Shown here piece by piece: positions 1-17,538 of a stretch of 21,977 nt of DNA. The number at the start of each line of letters is the position of its first letter. Positions within the stretch are counted from its first letter, which is position 1. Position numbers and translations under genes: made by a program. The stretch is taken from the UHGV virus genome UHGV-0256468; one strand, given 5' to 3'. This DNA is from a virus. The notes under the pieces were generated by a model that had not been told where the DNA came from, did not search any database, and saw only the letters and a list, made by a program, of their open reading frames with translations.

Positions 1-2
1 TT

Positions 3-551
3 AAAAGTTTGTGTGACAAAAGAAGCATCATTTACACTCGTTATGCTGATGATATGCTTTTTTCGAGCTCCGGGAAAGACAAACTTCTTGGAAGTGAACA
101 TTTTGACAACGAGATATCAACTATTGTCAATACGGCAGGACTGTCCCTCAACAAACATAAAAAAATATTTAAGAAAGGCATAATCTCACTAAACGGCTAT
201 ATAATAGAAAATAAAAATGGAGGGGGAGAGAGAGGGAGTATAAGAATATCTAATGGAAAAATGTATTTAATACGGAAAGCACTAGATAAATTTAAAAAGG
301 GATATTCTAAAGAGCATATTTGCAAAAAGGTATTTTCTGTTAAATCACCAACTGTCAAGTATAATAACAATGCAGATCAGTTTGTAACGGATTTTTATAA
401 TTCACAATTCTCTAATAAGTTGGCTGGTTATCGTTCATATTTAATATCATTAGTAAAATTTAATGATAAATTCAGATGTTTTCACGAAAACGAAATCACC
501 AAATACTCAGTGATTATTGATGAAATTTCTAATGCACTGCTAAAACCCTAG
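3..551 (+). CDS. Reverse transcriptase, C-terminal part (5' end lies outside the window); defence-associated RT of retron / Abi-P2-like type
   Basis: The reading frame is open from the window edge (the ORF track starts it at an internal TTG at 9). The translation has the RT active-site motif YADD in the context IIYTRYADDMLFSS, followed by about 165 aa of thumb/C-terminal extension. The gene lies in an AT-rich block beside tail-fibre assembly gene G, where P2-like phages carry variable cargo. No alignment was run. Confidence 0.7.
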   Translation, partial: KSLCDKRSIIYTRYADDMLFSSSGKDKLLGSEHFDNEISTIVNTAGLSLNKHKKIFKKGIISLNGYIIENKNGGGERGSIRISNGKMYLIRKALDKFKKGYSKEHICKKVFSVKSPTVKYNNNADQFVTDFYNSQFSNKLAGYRSYLISLVKFNDKFRCFHENEITKYSVIIDEISNALLKP

Positions 552-571
552 CCTTAGAAAGTTAATGTTTT

Positions 572-596
572 GGCCCTAAAGCAAGGGCCTTAATAG
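572..596 (+). terminator. Candidate stem-loop terminator downstream of the RT gene (GGCCCT-AAAGCA-AGGGCC followed by TTAATAG)
   Basis: Perfect 6-bp inverted repeat with a 6-nt loop about 20 nt after the RT stop codon. The downstream U-tract is weak. Confidence 0.3.
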
Positions 597-973
597 TAAA
601 AATAGTTACCAGCATAAGTATTCCTTCAACTAATCACACAAATTAACGTTAGCAACGTTCCCTTTTTACACCGTCTGAGCACTAAGCTGTCGGTCATTCT
701 GGTCTACCATACTATTATACGTAACATCCAAGAGTGTTCCTGCAAACGGTCGTAGAAAATGCGGGCTTCGCCATTTTCTGGCCGACGCCGGTCTCGTCGA
801 GTTCTTCTGACTGTTCAAGTGCAAATGCGCCTGTAGGTATCCCTACAAAAGAAACCATCAACTTTCAGATAGTATCTGGCACTCCAACTCCCGCTGTTGA
901 CTCGGAGCAGACTGTCAGATTAAGTTTTACTCTGTGCCATAGATACGTTAGCTCACTCCAGATATCATACAAC

Positions 974-7879: not shown

Positions 7880-8377
7880 TTAAGCCGGTACGCCGCCAGC
7901 GGTACGCCAGACGGTGACCAGTTTTTCCAGTGAATGCTCACGCTGACCGTAACCGGCACCCGGCAGGGACGCCCAGATATTGCGACAGCGTGAAATGGCG
8001 CGCTCAATGCGTCCCGCCCGGATGTCATCCAGTGCACCGCGTTCGCGGATCAACTGAATGGCGAGCCTGTCCTGTGACAACGGACTGAAATCCGGCAGGG
8101 CAAGCTGTTTGCGGTAGTGCGGCCAGAACAGGTAAAGCTGCTGATAGCGACCGGAGGCCGTGGATTTTTCACCGCGACGGTTAAACACCTTCGCCGGTCG
8201 GCCATGCGCGAACGGGTGGTCACTGTAGTCAGTGAAGATTTCCGGCTTTCCGTCCAGTCCGGTGACTATCACGTCATAGCCCCGGTTTTTCGTCAGCGGA
8301 TGATTCGCCGTCCCTTCGGACACGGCCAGCATGTCGAGAAAGGCGGCGATATTCTGATGCGTGTTAATTACCGGCAT
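7880..8377 (-). CDS. K: Endolysin (P2 gpK-like lysozyme)
   Basis: 165-aa soluble ORF between the holin and lysA genes. Length and position match P2 K. Confidence 0.88.
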   Translation of the reverse strand: MPVINTHQNIAAFLDMLAVSEGTANHPLTKNRGYDVIVTGLDGKPEIFTDYSDHPFAHGRPAKVFNRRGEKSTASGRYQQLYLFWPHYRKQLALPDFSPLSQDRLAIQLIRERGALDDIRAGRIERAISRCRNIWASLPGAGYGQREHSLEKLVTVWRTAGGVPA

Positions 8378-8658
8378 TACTGTTTCCCCCTGCCCTTAAA
8401 GCGGCGCTGAATGGCAATCTCAATCACCTGATAACCGGCGATACCCAGCATGGAGCCGATGCCGCACACCGCAGGCAGTGACAGGTCAGGAAACTGCACC
8501 AGAACAACACCGGCAACCATCGAGACAAAACCACCGAGCAACATGCGCCCGATAAACAGACGCGGGGTGATGGGTTCACCACCGGCAAGCACCTTGCCGA
8601 CAACAATCAGCACCCCAATCATGAAAAGCGACAGGACGCTTTTTTCTTCTGCTGTCAT
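8377..8658 (-). CDS. Y: Holin (P2 gpY-like)
   Basis: 93-aa ORF with hydrophobic helices and a charged C-terminus (RRFKGRGKQ). Same length as P2 Y. Confidence 0.8.
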   Translation of the reverse strand: MTAEEKSVLSLFMIGVLIVVGKVLAGGEPITPRLFIGRMLLGGFVSMVAGVVLVQFPDLSLPAVCGIGSMLGIAGYQVIEIAIQRRFKGRGKQ

Positions 8659-8661
8659 GCG

Positions 8662-8865
8662 TTACTCCCACAGATTGACAGTTTCAGCCACGGGCGCGGT
8701 CTGAACGTCGGGCAGTTCGACGGCGGTGCCATGTGGCAGCACCGCCCCCAGTTCAGCCAGTCCCGGATTTGCGGCGAGCACAGCCTCGACCACGCCCTCA
8801 GTGCGCCCGTAATACCGGACACAGATGGCGTCGAGCGTGTCGCCCTGTAGCGCAAAGGTCTTCAT
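8662..8865 (-). CDS. X: Tail protein X (P2 gpX-like, LysM-like)
   Basis: Internal ATG at 8865 gives 67 aa (MKTFALQGDTLDAICVRYYG...), the same length as P2 X. The start overlaps the L stop codon. Confidence 0.8.
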   Translation of the reverse strand: MKTFALQGDTLDAICVRYYGRTEGVVEAVLAANPGLAELGAVLPHGTAVELPDVQTAPVAETVNLWE

Positions 8866-9374
8866 CAGATTTGACTCACGATGCAGCGCGGCTTGTCCTG
8901 GATACGCGCCACCGCCCAGCGCATATCCCGCCACAGTTCATCAATGGTGCTGTCAATGCTGTCGGCCTTCTTGTCGCCTTTTGCACTGGCATCCACGCCG
9001 CGGTAACGCTCATAAAGCGACGCGGTCGCCATCGCACACACGGCGCGCTCGTAGTAAAAAACTTTGATGCTTTCACCGTCGATGTCGTCCGCCGGGACGT
9101 CCGCCAGACGCGTAAAACCGGCGGCAATTTTCTGTTCGCGGTACTCGTACAGCTCCGCATTCGTCTCCGCCATGCCTGACTTGATGGCCTCACGCAGACG
9201 GGCGGGGGCGACGGTCTGCTCAAGGCGCATACGTTCCCGGACGCGCTTCGGGTCGATATCGGGAAAAAAGAACGTGTTTTTAATCACCGGCTCGTCGACT
9301 GCCGGTTGCGGGATGACCACCGTACCCTCACCGGACACGGGAGCCTCCTTTCGCGGAATAATCAGCGTCATCAT
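8865..9374 (-). CDS. L: Head completion/stabilisation protein (P2 gpL-like)
   Basis: Start at the MMTLIIPRKEAP methionine gives 169 aa, the same length as P2 L. It lies between M and X. Confidence 0.85.
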   Translation of the reverse strand: MMTLIIPRKEAPVSGEGTVVIPQPAVDEPVIKNTFFFPDIDPKRVRERMRLEQTVAPARLREAIKSGMAETNAELYEYREQKIAAGFTRLADVPADDIDGESIKVFYYERAVCAMATASLYERYRGVDASAKGDKKADSIDSTIDELWRDMRWAVARIQDKPRCIVSQI

Positions 9375-9473
9375 GACTACCTCTGAAAAGTCGGGCGGTG
9401 GACGCCGGTGCAGTGTCAGGTGATTCACCCTCACTGACCGGCGTGCCGCCCTGGCGCGGGGCGCATTCGGTTG

Positions 9474-10217
9474 TTAACTGGCTTTCTTTTTCGGGCGTCC
9501 ACGTTTTGCCGGTGTCACGCTCCGGGTCTTACGCGGGGCGCGGGTGGCCGCTTTGGGCTGCGGCTCCGGCTTCGGTTTCAGCTCCCGCTCCAGTCGTTCA
9601 ATCTCTTTTTTGACGCCTGCCTGACAGTCGAGCTGTGTCGCACGTTGCAGGTGAGCCAGCGCACCGGCGGCATCACCAGCGTCACGCAGAAACAGACCGG
9701 TGATTTTGTGCAGCTTTGCGCGCACTTCATCAGGCATGTCTGCCGTGGCGGTCAGTGCAAGGGTCTCCGTCAGCAGGCGGGTATCCACAGACTCACCGGC
9801 AGCGTGGGCGCGCATGGCCGCGAGCGCCACCTCCTCGGTGAACATATACGGCGGGGTGCGGCGGTGTTTACCCGGCATGGTCAGACCGTACTTCAGGGCA
9901 TAACGGGCAATCTCCAGCGCACCGGCAATATCGCCGGTATCCAGACGCCACAGCATGACCGTCATCAGAATGTCATCCTGTGCACCTTTGCCCTGCTCCA
10001 GCACGCCGTTCACCCACGGCAACCAGAACGGCAGCAGTTCGCGTTTTTTCGCGGCCTTCAGCTCTTTTGAATAAATCGCTTTCAGTGTGCGCTGGTCTGC
10101 GGCCAGCTTGACCAGCATCTGCTCATAGACAGTTGCATGTCGCAGCGGGGCGGCGTCCCGCTGCGCGGTCATCGCTGCCGAGACCCGCATCATGTGGCGC
10201 TGTGCGGGACTCGTCAT
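9474..10217 (-). CDS. M: Terminase small (endonuclease) subunit (P2 gpM-like)
   Basis: 247-aa ORF with a basic C-terminal tail (KRGRPKKK). Same length as P2 M and located between N and L. Confidence 0.85.
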   Translation of the reverse strand: MTSPAQRHMMRVSAAMTAQRDAAPLRHATVYEQMLVKLAADQRTLKAIYSKELKAAKKRELLPFWLPWVNGVLEQGKGAQDDILMTVMLWRLDTGDIAGALEIARYALKYGLTMPGKHRRTPPYMFTEEVALAAMRAHAAGESVDTRLLTETLALTATADMPDEVRAKLHKITGLFLRDAGDAAGALAHLQRATQLDCQAGVKKEIERLERELKPKPEPQPKAATRAPRKTRSVTPAKRGRPKKKAS

Positions 10218-12207: not shown

Positions 12208-12380
12208 TGTCAGGAGTCCTGAATAGTGATTAGAAGAGTCACATGTCGGCATCAGTTTCCCGACGATGCGCATCCTCCGCCATCAGTCCCGGATGGCTTA
12301 TCACTGACACAACAGCACCTTAGCGAATCGCGGGGCGCGACTCAGTAGCCTTGCCGTGTATTCATCACGGCGAGGTATTC
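12208..12380. promoter_or_regulatory. Divergent late-promoter region between O (minus strand) and P (plus strand)
   Basis: 173-bp non-coding interval between divergently transcribed capsid and terminase operons. It contains the inverted repeats GTGA-N9-TCAC (about 12226..12242) and GCCGTG-TATTCAT-CACGGC (about 12352..12370), the latter just upstream of a GAGG ribosome-binding site for P. Exact Ogr-type promoter elements are not mapped. Confidence 0.5.
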
Positions 12381-14153
12381 ATGACCATCACCACAGACAC
12401 CACTCTTTTACACGACCCGCGTCGTCAGGCGGCGCTGCTGTACTGGCAGGGATTTTCCGTGCCGCAGATTGCCGCCATGTTGCAGATGAAACGCCCGACG
12501 GTGCAGAGCTGGAAACAGCGCGACGGCTGGGACAGCGTTGCCCCCATCAGCCGTGTCGAAATGAGTCTGGAAGCGCGGCTGACCCAGCTCATCATCAAAC
12601 CGCAGAAAACCGGCGGTGACTTCAAGGAAATTGACCTGCTCGGACGCCAGATTGAACGACTGGCACGGGTAAACCGCTACAGCCAGACCGGCAACGAGGC
12701 AGACCTTAATCCGAACATCGCTAACCGCAACAAAGGCGGGCGGCGCAAACCGAAAAAGAATTTTTTCAGTGACGAGGCTATCGAAAAGCTGGAGCAGATT
12801 TTCTTTGAGCAGTCTTTCGAATATCAGTTGCACTGGTATCGCGCCGGGCTTGAGCACCGCATCCGCGATATCCTGAAATCCCGCCAGATTGGCGCGACGT
12901 TTTATTTTTCCCGCGAGGCGCTGCTGCGCGCCCTGAAAACCGGTCATAACCAGATTTTTCTGTCGGCCAGTAAAACGCAGGCGTATGTGTTCCGCGAATA
13001 CATCATCGCCTTTGCCCGGCTGGTTGACGTTGACCTGACCGGTGACCCGATTGTCCTGGGCAATAACGGCGCAAAACTGATTTTTCTCGGCACCAACTCC
13101 AACACCGCGCAGAGCCATAACGGCGACCTGTACGTCGACGAGATTTTCTGGATACCGAATTTTCAGGTACTGCGTAAGGTGGCATCAGGTATGGCCTCAC
13201 AGAGTCACCTGCGCTCGACCTATTTCTCCACCCCGTCCACGCTGGCGCACGACGCCTACCCGTTCTGGTCGGGTGAACTGTTCAACCGGGGACGCGCCAG
13301 CGCCGCCGAACGCGTGGAAATCGACGTCAGTCATAACGCTCTTGCCGGTGGGCTTCTCTGTGCGGACGGTCAGTGGCGGCAGATTGTCACCATTGAGGAC
13401 GCCCTGAAAGGTGGCTGCACGCTGTTCGACATTGAGCAGCTTAAACGCGAAAACAGCGCCGACGATTTTAAAAACCTGTTCATGTGTGAATTTGTTGACG
13501 ACAAGGCGTCGGTGTTCCCGTTCGAGGAGCTGCAACGCTGCATGGTCGACACGCTGGAAGAATGGGAAGACTATGCGCCGTTTGCCGCGAATCCGTTCGG
13601 CTCCCGCCCGGTCTGGATTGGTTACGACCCGTCACACCGTGGCGACAGTGCCGGATGCGTGGTGCTGGCACCGCCGGTGGTGGCCGGTGGCAAATTCAGA
13701 ATACTTGAGCGTCACCAGTGGAAAGGCATGGACTTTGCCACCCAGGCTGAATCCATCCGCAAACTCACCGAAAAATACAACGTCGAATACATCGGAATTG
13801 ATGCCACCGGCCTCGGTGTCGGCGTGTTCCAGCTCGTTCGCTCGTTCTATCCCGCCGCACGCGATATCCGCTACACGCCGGAAATGAAAACCGCAATGGT
13901 GCTCAAGGCAAAAGACGTTATTCGCCGTGGCTGTCTGGAATATGACGTCAGCGCCACCGACATCACCAGCTCGTTTATGGCTATCCGCAAGACCATGACC
14001 AGCAGCGGACGCAGCGCCACGTATGAGGCCAGCCGCAGCGAGGAAGCCAGCCACGCCGACCTCGCCTGGGCGACCATGCACGCCCTGTTAAATGAGCCAC
14101 TCACCGCCGGTATCAGCACCCCGCTGACATCCACCATTCTGGAGTTTTACTGA
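12381..14153 (+). CDS. P: Terminase large (ATPase) subunit (P2 gpP-like)
   Basis: Start at the MTITTDTTLLHD methionine gives 590 aa, the same length as P2 P. A GAGG ribosome-binding site lies 6 nt upstream. Confidence 0.9.
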   Translation: MTITTDTTLLHDPRRQAALLYWQGFSVPQIAAMLQMKRPTVQSWKQRDGWDSVAPISRVEMSLEARLTQLIIKPQKTGGDFKEIDLLGRQIERLARVNRYSQTGNEADLNPNIANRNKGGRRKPKKNFFSDEAIEKLEQIFFEQSFEYQLHWYRAGLEHRIRDILKSRQIGATFYFSREALLRALKTGHNQIFLSASKTQAYVFREYIIAFARLVDVDLTGDPIVLGNNGAKLIFLGTNSNTAQSHNGDLYVDEIFWIPNFQVLRKVASGMASQSHLRSTYFSTPSTLAHDAYPFWSGELFNRGRASAAERVEIDVSHNALAGGLLCADGQWRQIVTIEDALKGGCTLFDIEQLKRENSADDFKNLFMCEFVDDKASVFPFEELQRCMVDTLEEWEDYAPFAANPFGSRPVWIGYDPSHRGDSAGCVVLAPPVVAGGKFRILERHQWKGMDFATQAESIRKLTEKYNVEYIGIDATGLGVGVFQLVRSFYPAARDIRYTPEMKTAMVLKAKDVIRRGCLEYDVSATDITSSFMAIRKTMTSSGRSATYEASRSEEASHADLAWATMHALLNEPLTAGISTPLTSTILEFY

Positions 14154-15187: not shown

Positions 15188-15192
15188 ACATC

Positions 15193-15214
15193 GCCGCCTG
15201 CGGGCGGCTTTTTT
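15193..15214 (+). terminator. Rho-independent terminator of the P-Q operon
   Basis: GCCGCC-TGCG-GGCGGC stem-loop followed by TTTTTT, beginning 6 nt after the Q stop codon. Confidence 0.7.
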
Positions 15215-15349
15215 ACAACCCGTCATCACGGCCTCACACGCTCACCACCGCACAAAACACCCCGCAGACACACCAACGCCCCGGCAGGCCGACTAAATGC
15301 CATCACGACGCGCTCAGACGCAAAAAAACTGTCACTACCACGCCGTTAC

Positions 15350-15374
15350 GTTGGCCACATAAAATGTGGCCAAC
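15350..15374 (-). terminator. Stem-loop at the 3' end of the cargo gene (GTTGGCCACA-TAAAA-TGTGGCCAAC)
   Basis: Perfect 10-bp inverted repeat starting 6 nt downstream of the cargo gene stop codon. There is no immediate U-tract (a T-run follows about 25 nt later), so it may be a terminator or a stabilising hairpin. Confidence 0.4.
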
Positions 15375-15379
15375 TCCAG

Positions 15380-16381
15380 TTATAATAATTTGTCCAGCCT
15401 AGCTGAAACAATACCTAGAACAACTGTTGAAACTATATTTAACACCACTCTTAAAATACTCTTCTTTCGCTTCTTACTATATTCATCATACAACCTCTCA
15501 TCACCCTTATTTAATACAATGTACGATGCTGGAGTATAACCATCAATTAATCTCTCTAGGCCTTCACCTAAATGCTCCGCTAACAATGGGATAATAGAAA
15601 ACGCACCAAGAAAGAGCATTAAAAATTTTACTAACCTTTCTTTATCACCAATATCAATATATTCACCAACATTGTACAGTGCATAACTTAAAATCAATAT
15701 AGAAAAAGAAAACCGCATAATCAGTGGAATTAAATACGATATCCTTTGAGCTTGCTGTATCAATGGTATTTTGTTTGTAACTCTTTGACATCCTTCAACC
15801 CATTCTTTAAATGCTTCGATAAAACCTCTAGCCACTACATAATCAGCATATTCAACAACTATTTCTGCTGAACTGGTGAGCATGAATGCAACAAAACGCC
15901 CCCTAATGAAAGGTGGTGCATCTTCTTCCATTTCTTTCTGCATAGCAATTCTTGATGCTAATTTAACAGTAACTTCATAGTGGTTAGGTAATGATGCCCC
16001 TGTCGATAAAATTGCAAAGTTATATTTTAAAATTACACTAATTGTTGGACTACTTCCCGCACTACTCGACATTGCAAACTTATCAAAAGAGGTAAACTGT
16101 TCCTTTCTATCTTTTGAATGTAAAATAGTTACCGTTTCATTTTTCGATATAATATTATGAACATCACACAATTGATTTATTTTTTGATGAACGCTTCTTA
16201 TCTCATCGATATTTATAAGTAAATTCTCAGAGGTTCTCTGCCTTATTGTTTCTGTTGTTCCCGTTATATGTTGATAAATTTGCTGATAAATACGAATGCT
16301 AGTATTAATATCCCGAGAAGCAGGTAACCCACTATTAACCCCATTATTTTTTTCATTTGACTCATCAATTATAATACTCAT
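15380..16381 (-). CDS. Hypothetical 333-aa protein with an N-terminal soluble domain of about 210 aa and three predicted C-terminal transmembrane helices; candidate anti-phage cargo
   Basis: Long ORF in a conspicuously AT-rich block embedded in GC-rich phage DNA, between portal gene Q and the cos site. Hydrophobic segments lie at about residues 214-236, 251-267 and 308-327. It has its own AT-rich upstream region and a downstream hairpin. I do not recognise the protein. Confidence 0.75.
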   Translation of the reverse strand: MSIIIDESNEKNNGVNSGLPASRDINTSIRIYQQIYQHITGTTETIRQRTSENLLINIDEIRSVHQKINQLCDVHNIISKNETVTILHSKDRKEQFTSFDKFAMSSSAGSSPTISVILKYNFAILSTGASLPNHYEVTVKLASRIAMQKEMEEDAPPFIRGRFVAFMLTSSAEIVVEYADYVVARGFIEAFKEWVEGCQRVTNKIPLIQQAQRISYLIPLIMRFSFSILILSYALYNVGEYIDIGDKERLVKFLMLFLGAFSIIPLLAEHLGEGLERLIDGYTPASYIVLNKGDERLYDEYSKKRKKSILRVVLNIVSTVVLGIVSARLDKLL

Positions 16382-16625
16382 TTTATTTCCTATAAAAACT
16401 TAACCAGCAAATTAAATAAAAAGAACACAAGGTTATTATTTAGCGTGCAACAACACGATTGCACAACCAAATGCCACGTGTACGAATCTAACCATTCTCT
16501 TATATTAAATCAAGTCAATACAACCTAATAGACACATTTTTATCGCAGTTATACACTTGGTTAACAATATGCGGATAGTTACTCAAATCAAATTACATAT
16601 ATGACAAAATGAACAATTGCGCGCA

Positions 16626-16644
16626 GTGCTTTCCCCGCCTCGCC
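16626..16644. other. cos: cos site (19-nt cohesive end)
   Basis: GTGCTTTCCCCGCCTCGCC on the plus strand. Its reverse complement, GGCGAGGCGGGGAAAGCAC, is the P2 cohesive-end sequence as I recall it, and it lies in the expected A-to-Q interval. Confidence 0.8.
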
Positions 16645-17044
16645 CGCCCGCTTCACAGGGCGGTTTTAATGCAGTTGCATAGATACTATGGATCCGCACC
16701 AGTCCTGACCGCACGCAGCCTGAACGGACATCCCCAACGCATGCAAAAACATTCACTTGTTGCATGCATAGCTTTTTAAGTACGCCATACCGCAACTGTA
16801 CATTTTTAAGCAATTGGCAACTTTAAAAAATTTACATTGCTTTCAAGACCTTATCATCCGTAGTCTCTGTTTTTTACTTTGAGCTACATCAATAAAATCT
16901 CAAACATGTTTAATGCAAAGCCCTTGTTACACAACATAGAATGTATGTCTAGAAACAACGACATACTATATGTTGTGTTTTTCCGGCCCTCTGTTCGGTG
17001 ATATGCCAAATCACTTTGCGTTTAAACAGAGCATTATTTCAGGG

Positions 17045-17059
17045 CAAGACTTCGCTCAA
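17045..17059. repeat. Direct repeat copy 1 (CAAGACTTCGCTCAA)
   Basis: 15-nt perfect match to 17309..17323. The two copies bracket the 37-codon ORF and its terminator. Confidence 0.5.
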
Positions 17060-17122
17060 AAGTCATTCCACCTAAGAAGCGCATATACCGGTGGAAGTTG
17101 CCCTCTACTTACAGGAGGCAAT

Positions 17123-17236
17123 ATGAAGAAATGCTATTACTGCATTCTCGTTCTGGCCCTCTTTGGCTATCCAAACGGTAGTCCAAGTGGTTTGTCAGTA
17201 AACGTCAGTAATATCAATGTCAGCATTATGCTTTAA
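17123..17236 (+). CDS. Small hydrophobic protein, 37 aa (MKKCYYCILVLALFGYPNGSPSGLSVNVSNINVSIML)
   Basis: AGGAGG Shine-Dalgarno sequence 4 nt upstream of the ATG, and a strong terminator 12 nt downstream of the stop. The N-terminal half is hydrophobic. The longer 88-aa form in the ORF track begins at an upstream ATG with no ribosome-binding site. Confidence 0.4.
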   Translation: MKKCYYCILVLALFGYPNGSPSGLSVNVSNINVSIML

Positions 17237-17247
17237 TATGCTTCAAA

Positions 17248-17279
17248 CAAAAAAACCACCTGCCAGGGTGGTTTTTTTG
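17248..17279. terminator. Bidirectional rho-independent terminator
   Basis: A-run, then ACCACCTG / CAGGGTGGT stem, then a 7-T run (AAAAAAACCACCTGCCAGGGTGGTTTTTTTG). Confidence 0.75.
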
Positions 17280-17308
17280 CGCCCATCATCAATACGATGA
17301 AAGACTGA

Positions 17309-17323
17309 CAAGACTTCGCTCAA
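17309..17323. repeat. Direct repeat copy 2 (CAAGACTTCGCTCAA)
   Basis: 15-nt perfect match to 17045..17059. Confidence 0.5.
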
Positions 17324-17431
17324 GACGAATTATGCGTCGACATAAGGTTACCCGCAATGATTTTATTAGTCTAAATGGATGGCCTTTTATGACCCGGATC
17401 AAACGGCTGTCCTTACCGACATGCTAGTCAC

Positions 17432-17469
17432 TCAATAGCATTTAGCCTTCTAATTCAGCATGCTATTGA
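17432..17469. promoter_or_regulatory. 10-bp perfect inverted repeat (TCAATAGCAT-N18-ATGCTATTGA) with a third ATGCTA copy just upstream
   Basis: Read directly from the sequence, about 70-110 nt beyond the 3' end of gene A. It could be a protein-binding site or an RNA structure. Confidence 0.25.
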
Positions 17470-17538
17470 CCTTCTGCTGCCCCATAACTGCTCCGCATAA
17501 GCCATTCAATGCCATATCAAATTACGTTGTGTTTTTAC

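Follow-up and report, generated by a model that had tools for sequence, protein, structure and literature searches.

An AT-rich accessory-gene cassette between portal gene Q and the predicted cos site of a P2-like prophage

Results

The window (the whole 21,977-nt stretch of UHGV-0256468 that was analysed) is a P2-like prophage in the orientation opposite to the P2 reference map (Table 1). Its portal protein is identical or 99% identical in 80 IMG/VR P2-like loci. The 19-mer that a sequence-only reading of this DNA had matched to the P2 cohesive end is exactly that end: GGCGAGGCGGGGAAAGCAC is identical to the annotated cosL (1..19) and cosR (33575..33593) of the P2 reference NC_001895, and a shuffled-sequence control allowing up to 3 mismatches gave an expectation of 0.02 matches. 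The 19-mer sits between Q and A, as a P2-type cos should, and the core around it (16619..16671) is identical to the circularised P2 ends at 52 of 53 positions. Staggered cleavage of a P2-type cos by terminase leaves 19-nt 5' overhangs in virion DNA, and the cos of the window is predicted to be cut in this way. The Q-to-A interval measures 2351 bp, against roughly 3.4 kb in P2.

Table 1. Features of the window around the predicted cos site.
Feature	Position	Strand	Remarks
Terminase gene P	12351..14153	+	Full-length Pfam match
Portal gene Q, 344 aa	14153..15187	+	Pfam Phage_portal, full-length match
Q-proximal spacer	15188..15347	.	Aligns to P2 and to the empty-site locus L077 until about 15321; abuts the cos flank when the site is empty
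tQ, rho-independent terminator of the P-Q operon	15193..15214	+	Terminator scan; sequence and position as annotated P2 tQ
Inserted cargo cassette, 1271 bp, 32.6% GC	15348..16618	.	Absent from P2 and from 77 of 79 close relatives
Hairpin, perfect 11-bp stem, 3-nt loop, 100% complementary	15350..15374	-	Inverted repeat, 5 nt past the cargo stop codon
Cargo ORF, 333 aa	15380..16381	-	Sole ORF of at least 60 aa in the insert; read from cos towards Q
AT-rich region upstream of the cargo gene, 237 bp	16382..16618	-	Reaches to 7 bp from the cohesive end
Q-side flank of cos, 7 bp, GCGCGCA (+ strand)	16619..16625	.	Nearly invariant in 76 P2-like loci; present in P2 and 186
P2 19-nt cohesive end (predicted cos cleavage site), GGCGAGGCGGGGAAAGCAC	16626..16644	-	Exact match, single copy
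Hairpin CCGCCC-N8-GGGCGG, then TTTT	16644..16667		Terminator scan
A-side half of the cos core, with hairpin and TTTTAATGCAGTTGCA	16645..16680	.	Conserved to about +36 in 76 loci
A-side arm of the hotspot	16681..17538	.	858 bp, 41% GC
Replication gene A, 761 aa	17539..19824	-	Pfam Phage_GPA, E = 3e-124, full-length match

The same reading had placed cos about 1.4 kb from the portal gene and had described a switch to AT-rich DNA within a few bases of it. Both hold. The Q stop codon (15187) is separated from the 19-mer by 1438 bp, whereas P2 has 167 bp, not about 1.3 kb, between cosL and its Q stop. In the alignment to P2 that the reading had called for, homology covers 15101 to about 15321, a stretch that takes in the end of Q, tQ and spacer sequence, and resumes at 16619. 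By comparison with L077 and with the spacer variants of other lineages, breakpoints were placed at about 15347/15348 on the left and 16618/16619 on the right, accurate to about 2 bp, and the insert is therefore 1271 bp long. The last 26 nt of the Q-proximal spacer, after about 15321, resemble the spacer end in other lineages. GC content is 53.5% in Q and 60% in the spacer, against 32.6% in the insert, the cos-side edge of which lies 7 bp from the cohesive end.

Judged from its sequence, the hairpin just past the cargo stop codon is probably the terminator of the cargo gene. The promoter presumably lies in the AT-rich region upstream, where a consensus scan (16382..16618) gave no convincing sigma-70 match. 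An inverted repeat, GTGCAA-N8-TTGCAC, at 16445..16464, about 65-85 nt 5' of the start codon, could be an operator. A non-coding RNA in the Q-to-A interval was considered and rejected, as Rfam searches of that interval returned only sub-threshold, terminator-like hits. Once cos is cleaved as predicted, the virion DNA would carry the cargo ORF near its left (Q-side) terminus, at about nt 264-1265, which agrees with the earlier placement of the cargo next to the packaging site and thus at the extreme Q-side end. In NC_001895, old and tin are found on the side of cos that faces gene A, as the reading had stated and unlike the cassette described here.

The site is seldom occupied in close relatives. 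Among 79 IMG/VR loci with near-identical Q, all from close E. coli relatives, 77 have an empty site with a Q-to-cos distance of 156-170 bp. Of the two occupied sites, one (L004) carries the same insert and the other (L047) a different, two-gene cargo of 1875 bp with its cos-side junction in the same place as in the window. The L047 cargo (8327..10004, minus strand) encodes a 353-aa DUF262-type protein (PADLOC NsnA, 3e-40; PD-T4-2_A, 6e-18) and a 204-aa protein without a hit; it substitutes for the entire spacer between tQ and a point 7 bp short of the cohesive end. In complete E. coli genomes, the insert of the window was found in 10 of 1529 that bear the spacer, at 99.3-99.9% identity, and among 5426 E. 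coli genomes it was seen only in the cos-Q context. Genomes with this prophage include NZ_CP084055, NZ_CP019961 and NZ_CP146667. In E. coli strain H9 (NZ_CP195976.1 2277812..2280026) the cargo region is split by an IS1A element.

Conservation around cos was compared in P2, P4, 186, the window and 76 diverse P2-like prophage loci, anchored on the 19-mer; the 76 are the loci with identifiable cos from a survey of one genome per species across Enterobacterales. Conservation is asymmetric, reaching only about 7 bp on the Q side, as opposed to about 36 bp on the A side. The P4 equivalent of the Q-side flank, CGCGCGC, is a one-base variant of GCGCGCA, and the conserved A-side stretch of about 36 nt reads TGCCCGCTT...GGTTTTAATGCAGTTGCA. 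The core of the window agrees with the conserved 55-bp cos site common to P2 and P4 (PMC9594776, PMC2231350), and the same blocks are found in P4, 186 and the 76 loci. AT-rich DNA lies flush with GCGCGCA in at least 12 independent lineages.

The hairpin noticed earlier on the A side of the 19-mer was confirmed by the terminator scan. It was rejected as a conserved structure or terminator: all six pairs are intact in only 11 of the 76 diverse loci, and folding energies across these loci range from -13.6 to -0.5 kcal/mol. The hairpin is a P2-lineage feature, and the sequence blocks, not the helix, are under conservation. Two Logan contigs (L087 and L089) were considered as virion ends and rejected; their positions 1..30 correspond to cos core (4 + 19 + 7), beginning 4 nt before the 19-mer, and these starts are most likely assembly-graph breaks at a 30-nt core shared by several coexisting cos-bearing elements.

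The insert could have parted cos from Q-side sequence needed for packaging, in which case the prophage would be a packaging-dead remnant and its layout would have no bearing on a virion genome. Consistent with this, the spacer beside cos is moderately conserved in loci that lack Q-side cargo, no phage isolate in INPHARED carries the cargo family, and longer cos flanks are reported to raise cosmid transduction (PMC9594776). We consider a dead remnant unlikely. None of the Q, P and A ORFs is truncated, their domain matches are complete, and the cos core is almost identical to that of P2. P4, reportedly packaged by P2 machinery while sharing only the 55-bp cos site with P2 (PMC9594776, PMC2231350), has just the 7-nt flank in common on the Q side. 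Flush junctions occur in many independent lineages, and the 10 E. coli genomes with the same insert come from varied hosts and sources (water, crayfish, panda, human, pig).

The sharp junction at the same 7-bp position in different cargoes would also be expected of a transposable element, or of an integrase-driven insertion that targets the cos flank. Short flanking direct repeats, which the sequence-only reading had proposed looking for, are absent at both cassette edges: the repeat search found neither direct repeats nor a target-site duplication at 15348 or 16618, nor terminal inverted repeats, and the 1271-bp insert holds no transposase or integrase ORF. An IS or transposon origin of the cassette was rejected on these grounds, and targeted insertion of either kind is very improbable. 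The recurring junction is more simply attributed to selection, because anything nearer would destroy cos.

Variable DNA was also located relative to cos in the 76 diverse loci, a comparison suggested by the earlier reading. Cargo of 556-3962 bp (GC 31-50%) is present on the Q side in 29 of them (38%); the Q-side arm, rare among the close E. coli relatives of this prophage, is common in other Enterobacterales. Insertions are of two kinds, either flush with the 7-bp flank, as in the window, or near tQ with the spacer still on cos, the latter making up about a third of Q-side cargoes. Proteins encoded there include LmuA/LmuB (Lamassu), Avs5, OloA/OloB (Olokun) and PDC-S49, together with OLD/GajA-like ATPase, AbiLi-like, PDC-M18A and PDC-M03A proteins. 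In Yersinia enterocolitica (L091, 3728..6996) a gene for a 606-aa OLD/GajA-like ATPase lies beside Q, on the Q side of cos together with a homolog of the cargo gene, whereas old lies on the A side in P2.

Q-side ORFs are read mainly from cos towards Q (43, against 15 in the opposite direction). Outward reading from cos on both arms was considered as a general rule and rejected, since 113 A-side ORFs point towards cos and 58 away; the bias is confined to the Q side. The A-side arm has a median of 1448 bp in loci with Q-side cargo and 2635 bp in those without (Mann-Whitney p = 0.0009; kinship ignored). Across 74 loci in L097-L176, a longer arm on one side tends to go with a shorter one on the other (Spearman rho = -0.30, p = 0.01; kinship ignored).

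These patterns bear on a further proposal of the sequence-only reading, that the position at the genome end could matter for early expression or for packaging. In its strong form, the end position would itself be functional, either through early or privileged expression on injection or through selection by packaging constraints. The prevailing cos-to-Q direction fits this proposal, as do homolog start codons lying only 82-110 nt from the cohesive end in several loci; the shorter A-side arms beside Q-side cargo fit a limit on total cargo. Against it, the injected genome circularises via cos, a lysogen has this region in the interior of the prophage, and the cargoes near tQ are not at the end. 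No size limit is approached in the window, because its Q-to-A interval is shorter than that of P2, and the cargo gene has its own upstream region and hairpin. The proposal found no support here, and a function of the end position as such appears quite unlikely.

The A-side arm of the window contains a 37-aa ORF (MKKCYYCILVLALFGYPNGSPSGLSVNVSNINVSIML) at 17123..17236 (+), with a GGAGG ribosome-binding site. It is followed at about 17256..17271 by CCACC-N6-GGTGG and a T-run flanked by an A-run, seen by eye and not listed by the terminator scan. Five other P2-like loci (L025, L028, L053, L064, L072) encode this peptide with 92-100% identity, likewise on the A side. It gave no match in family searches and could be a small membrane peptide or toxin. 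At the far end of the window, positions 1..600 form a further AT-rich stretch (GC about 0.30) with a 180-aa ORF at 9..551 (+), adjoining tail-fibre genes; we take this position to be that of the second hotspot (Z/fun) on the P2 map.

About 200 homologs of the cargo protein were found in gamma- and beta-proteobacteria (about 331 aa, 40-60% identity), all annotated as hypothetical and without a Pfam domain, and the family alignment has 31 invariant positions, Y178, D180 and Y181 among them. The cluster of cargo proteins includes a 263-aa member. In an AlphaFold model of the protein (pLDDT 79), residues 25-197 form an alpha/beta domain, and the C-terminal part consists of three long helices that coincide with hydrophobic segments at 213-236, 249-272 and 307-330. 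A CorA-like membrane channel was considered as a possible structural counterpart, on the criterion of a cytoplasmic alpha/beta domain joined to C-terminal transmembrane helices. Searches with the 333-aa protein gave no PADLOC hit at E up to 1 and no PHROG, NCBIfam or PDB sequence match, and against Pfam only a sub-threshold match to DUF3894 (18.6 bits against a cutoff of 25). The protein was not found in the portion of the Rousset 2022 supplementary tables that was searched. Kinship to the similarly built 355-aa proteins of L139 and L149 was rejected at an hhalign probability of only 13%.

Genomic context was examined for 10 homologs, 7 of which lie just downstream of a P2-type cos on its left-end side (a metagenome P2-like contig, Pantoea, Klebsiella, Yersinia, Serratia, Cronobacter and Enterobacter mori); the cargo is on this account a candidate defence gene. 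The remaining 3 adjoin genes for Fic, HsdM_N, NERD and BrnT (L093), HerA and UvrD (L094), or integrases (L095). The likely start codon of the Klebsiella homolog is 85 nt from the cohesive end and is preceded by TTTACA-N18-TATCAT, as seen by eye. In Enterobacter mori (L178, 4900..6005) a cos with one mismatch lies 82 nt upstream of the homolog, no portal gene was detected, and the neighbours are WapI-like and TIR/SEFIR genes; this locus looks like a prophage remnant that has retained cos and cargo. Our best guess for the cargo is a membrane-acting anti-phage effector of the abortive-infection type; we infer that its most likely role is that of a membrane effector expressed in the lysogen against competing phages.

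Discussion

Very probably the cassette is an accessory gene, or moron, that occupies the Q-side arm of the hotspot known beside cos in P2-like phages. An AT-rich module of 1271 bp, comprising one gene with its own upstream region and terminal hairpin, would have replaced, or been inserted at, the junction of the Q-proximal spacer and the 7-bp cos flank, most likely by illegitimate or flank-guided recombination rather than by transposition. Terminase would recognise the 19-nt end together with flanks of about 7 bp towards Q and about 36 bp towards A. Because all of these determinants are intact in the window, the insert is not expected to prevent packaging. The cargo gene converges on Q, with tQ predicted to insulate it from the late operon. 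It would act as a lysogenic-conversion gene, presumably transcribed in the prophage state.

This layout is not unusual among P2-like phages: foreign genes in the slot are on record, and it is frequently filled in diverse enterobacterial P2-like prophages. The position between cosL and Q was named a hotspot in a 2017 paper that cites work of 1996 and 1999 (PMC5694545). According to the part of Dodd and Egan (1996) that is related there, retrons Ec67 and Ec86 replace the DNA from cos to the terminator in a 186-related prophage, and the slot was proposed as a site for the pick-up of foreign genes. This slot resembles that of the window in running from cos to the portal-operon terminator of an E. 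coli P2/186-family prophage, and differs in its cargo, a retron (reverse transcriptase and msDNA). In Ralstonia, P2-like phages have extra ORFs between cosL and the gpQ homolog (Askora et al., 2017).

The Pseudomonas P2-like phage phiCTX, like the window, carries a single accessory gene (ctx) between cosL and Q, which is read from cos towards Q, converges on Q and has its own annotated promoter and terminators. It differs in having a 21-nt cohesive end, in encoding a pore-forming toxin unrelated to the 333-aa protein, and in an annotated 220-bp repeat region between cos and the ctx promoter; because this region intervenes, the phiCTX cargo is not flush with the end. The gop-beta-cII region of P4 does share the geometry of the window, with variable cargo that directly adjoins the 7-nt flank to the left-end side of the shared 19-nt end, but P4 is a satellite without a portal gene and the far border of its cargo is int. 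Defence systems are reportedly not exchanged between P2 and P4.

The gpA-gpQ interval of P2-like phages has been described as a cos-adjacent hotspot rich in anti-phage systems (Rousset et al., 2022; Moura de Sousa et al., 2026). The cassette of the window lies inside this interval, which both studies handled as one locus without a split at cos. The former covers 18,150 gpA-gpQ loci and the latter 8,165 P2-like prophages. Given phiCTX ctx, the Ralstonia phages and these hotspot descriptions, the layout is of a known kind, and the slot has been described as an accessory-gene site since the 1990s. What is new here is this cargo, together with the arm-resolved numbers.

A more extended reading is possible, and we offer it tentatively. 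The 333-aa protein may found an undescribed family of single-gene, abortive-infection membrane effectors, long resident at the left terminus of P2-like phages across Enterobacterales and always read outward from cos, in a hotspot whose two arms evolve separately, with a trade-off between them.

The present analysis locates the packaging site of this prophage and sets the exact limits of its cargo. Natural variation shows that only about 7 bp are conserved on the portal side of the cohesive end, which is useful for the design of P2/P4 cosmids and engineered P2 vectors. The A-to-Q defence hotspot is divided by cos into two arms, the sizes of which are negatively associated and which were not separated in earlier descriptions (Rousset et al., 2022; Moura de Sousa et al., 2026). 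The cargo protein belongs to an uncharacterised family of membrane proteins with close linkage to the cos-to-Q slot, and this family is nominated as a candidate for phage defence.
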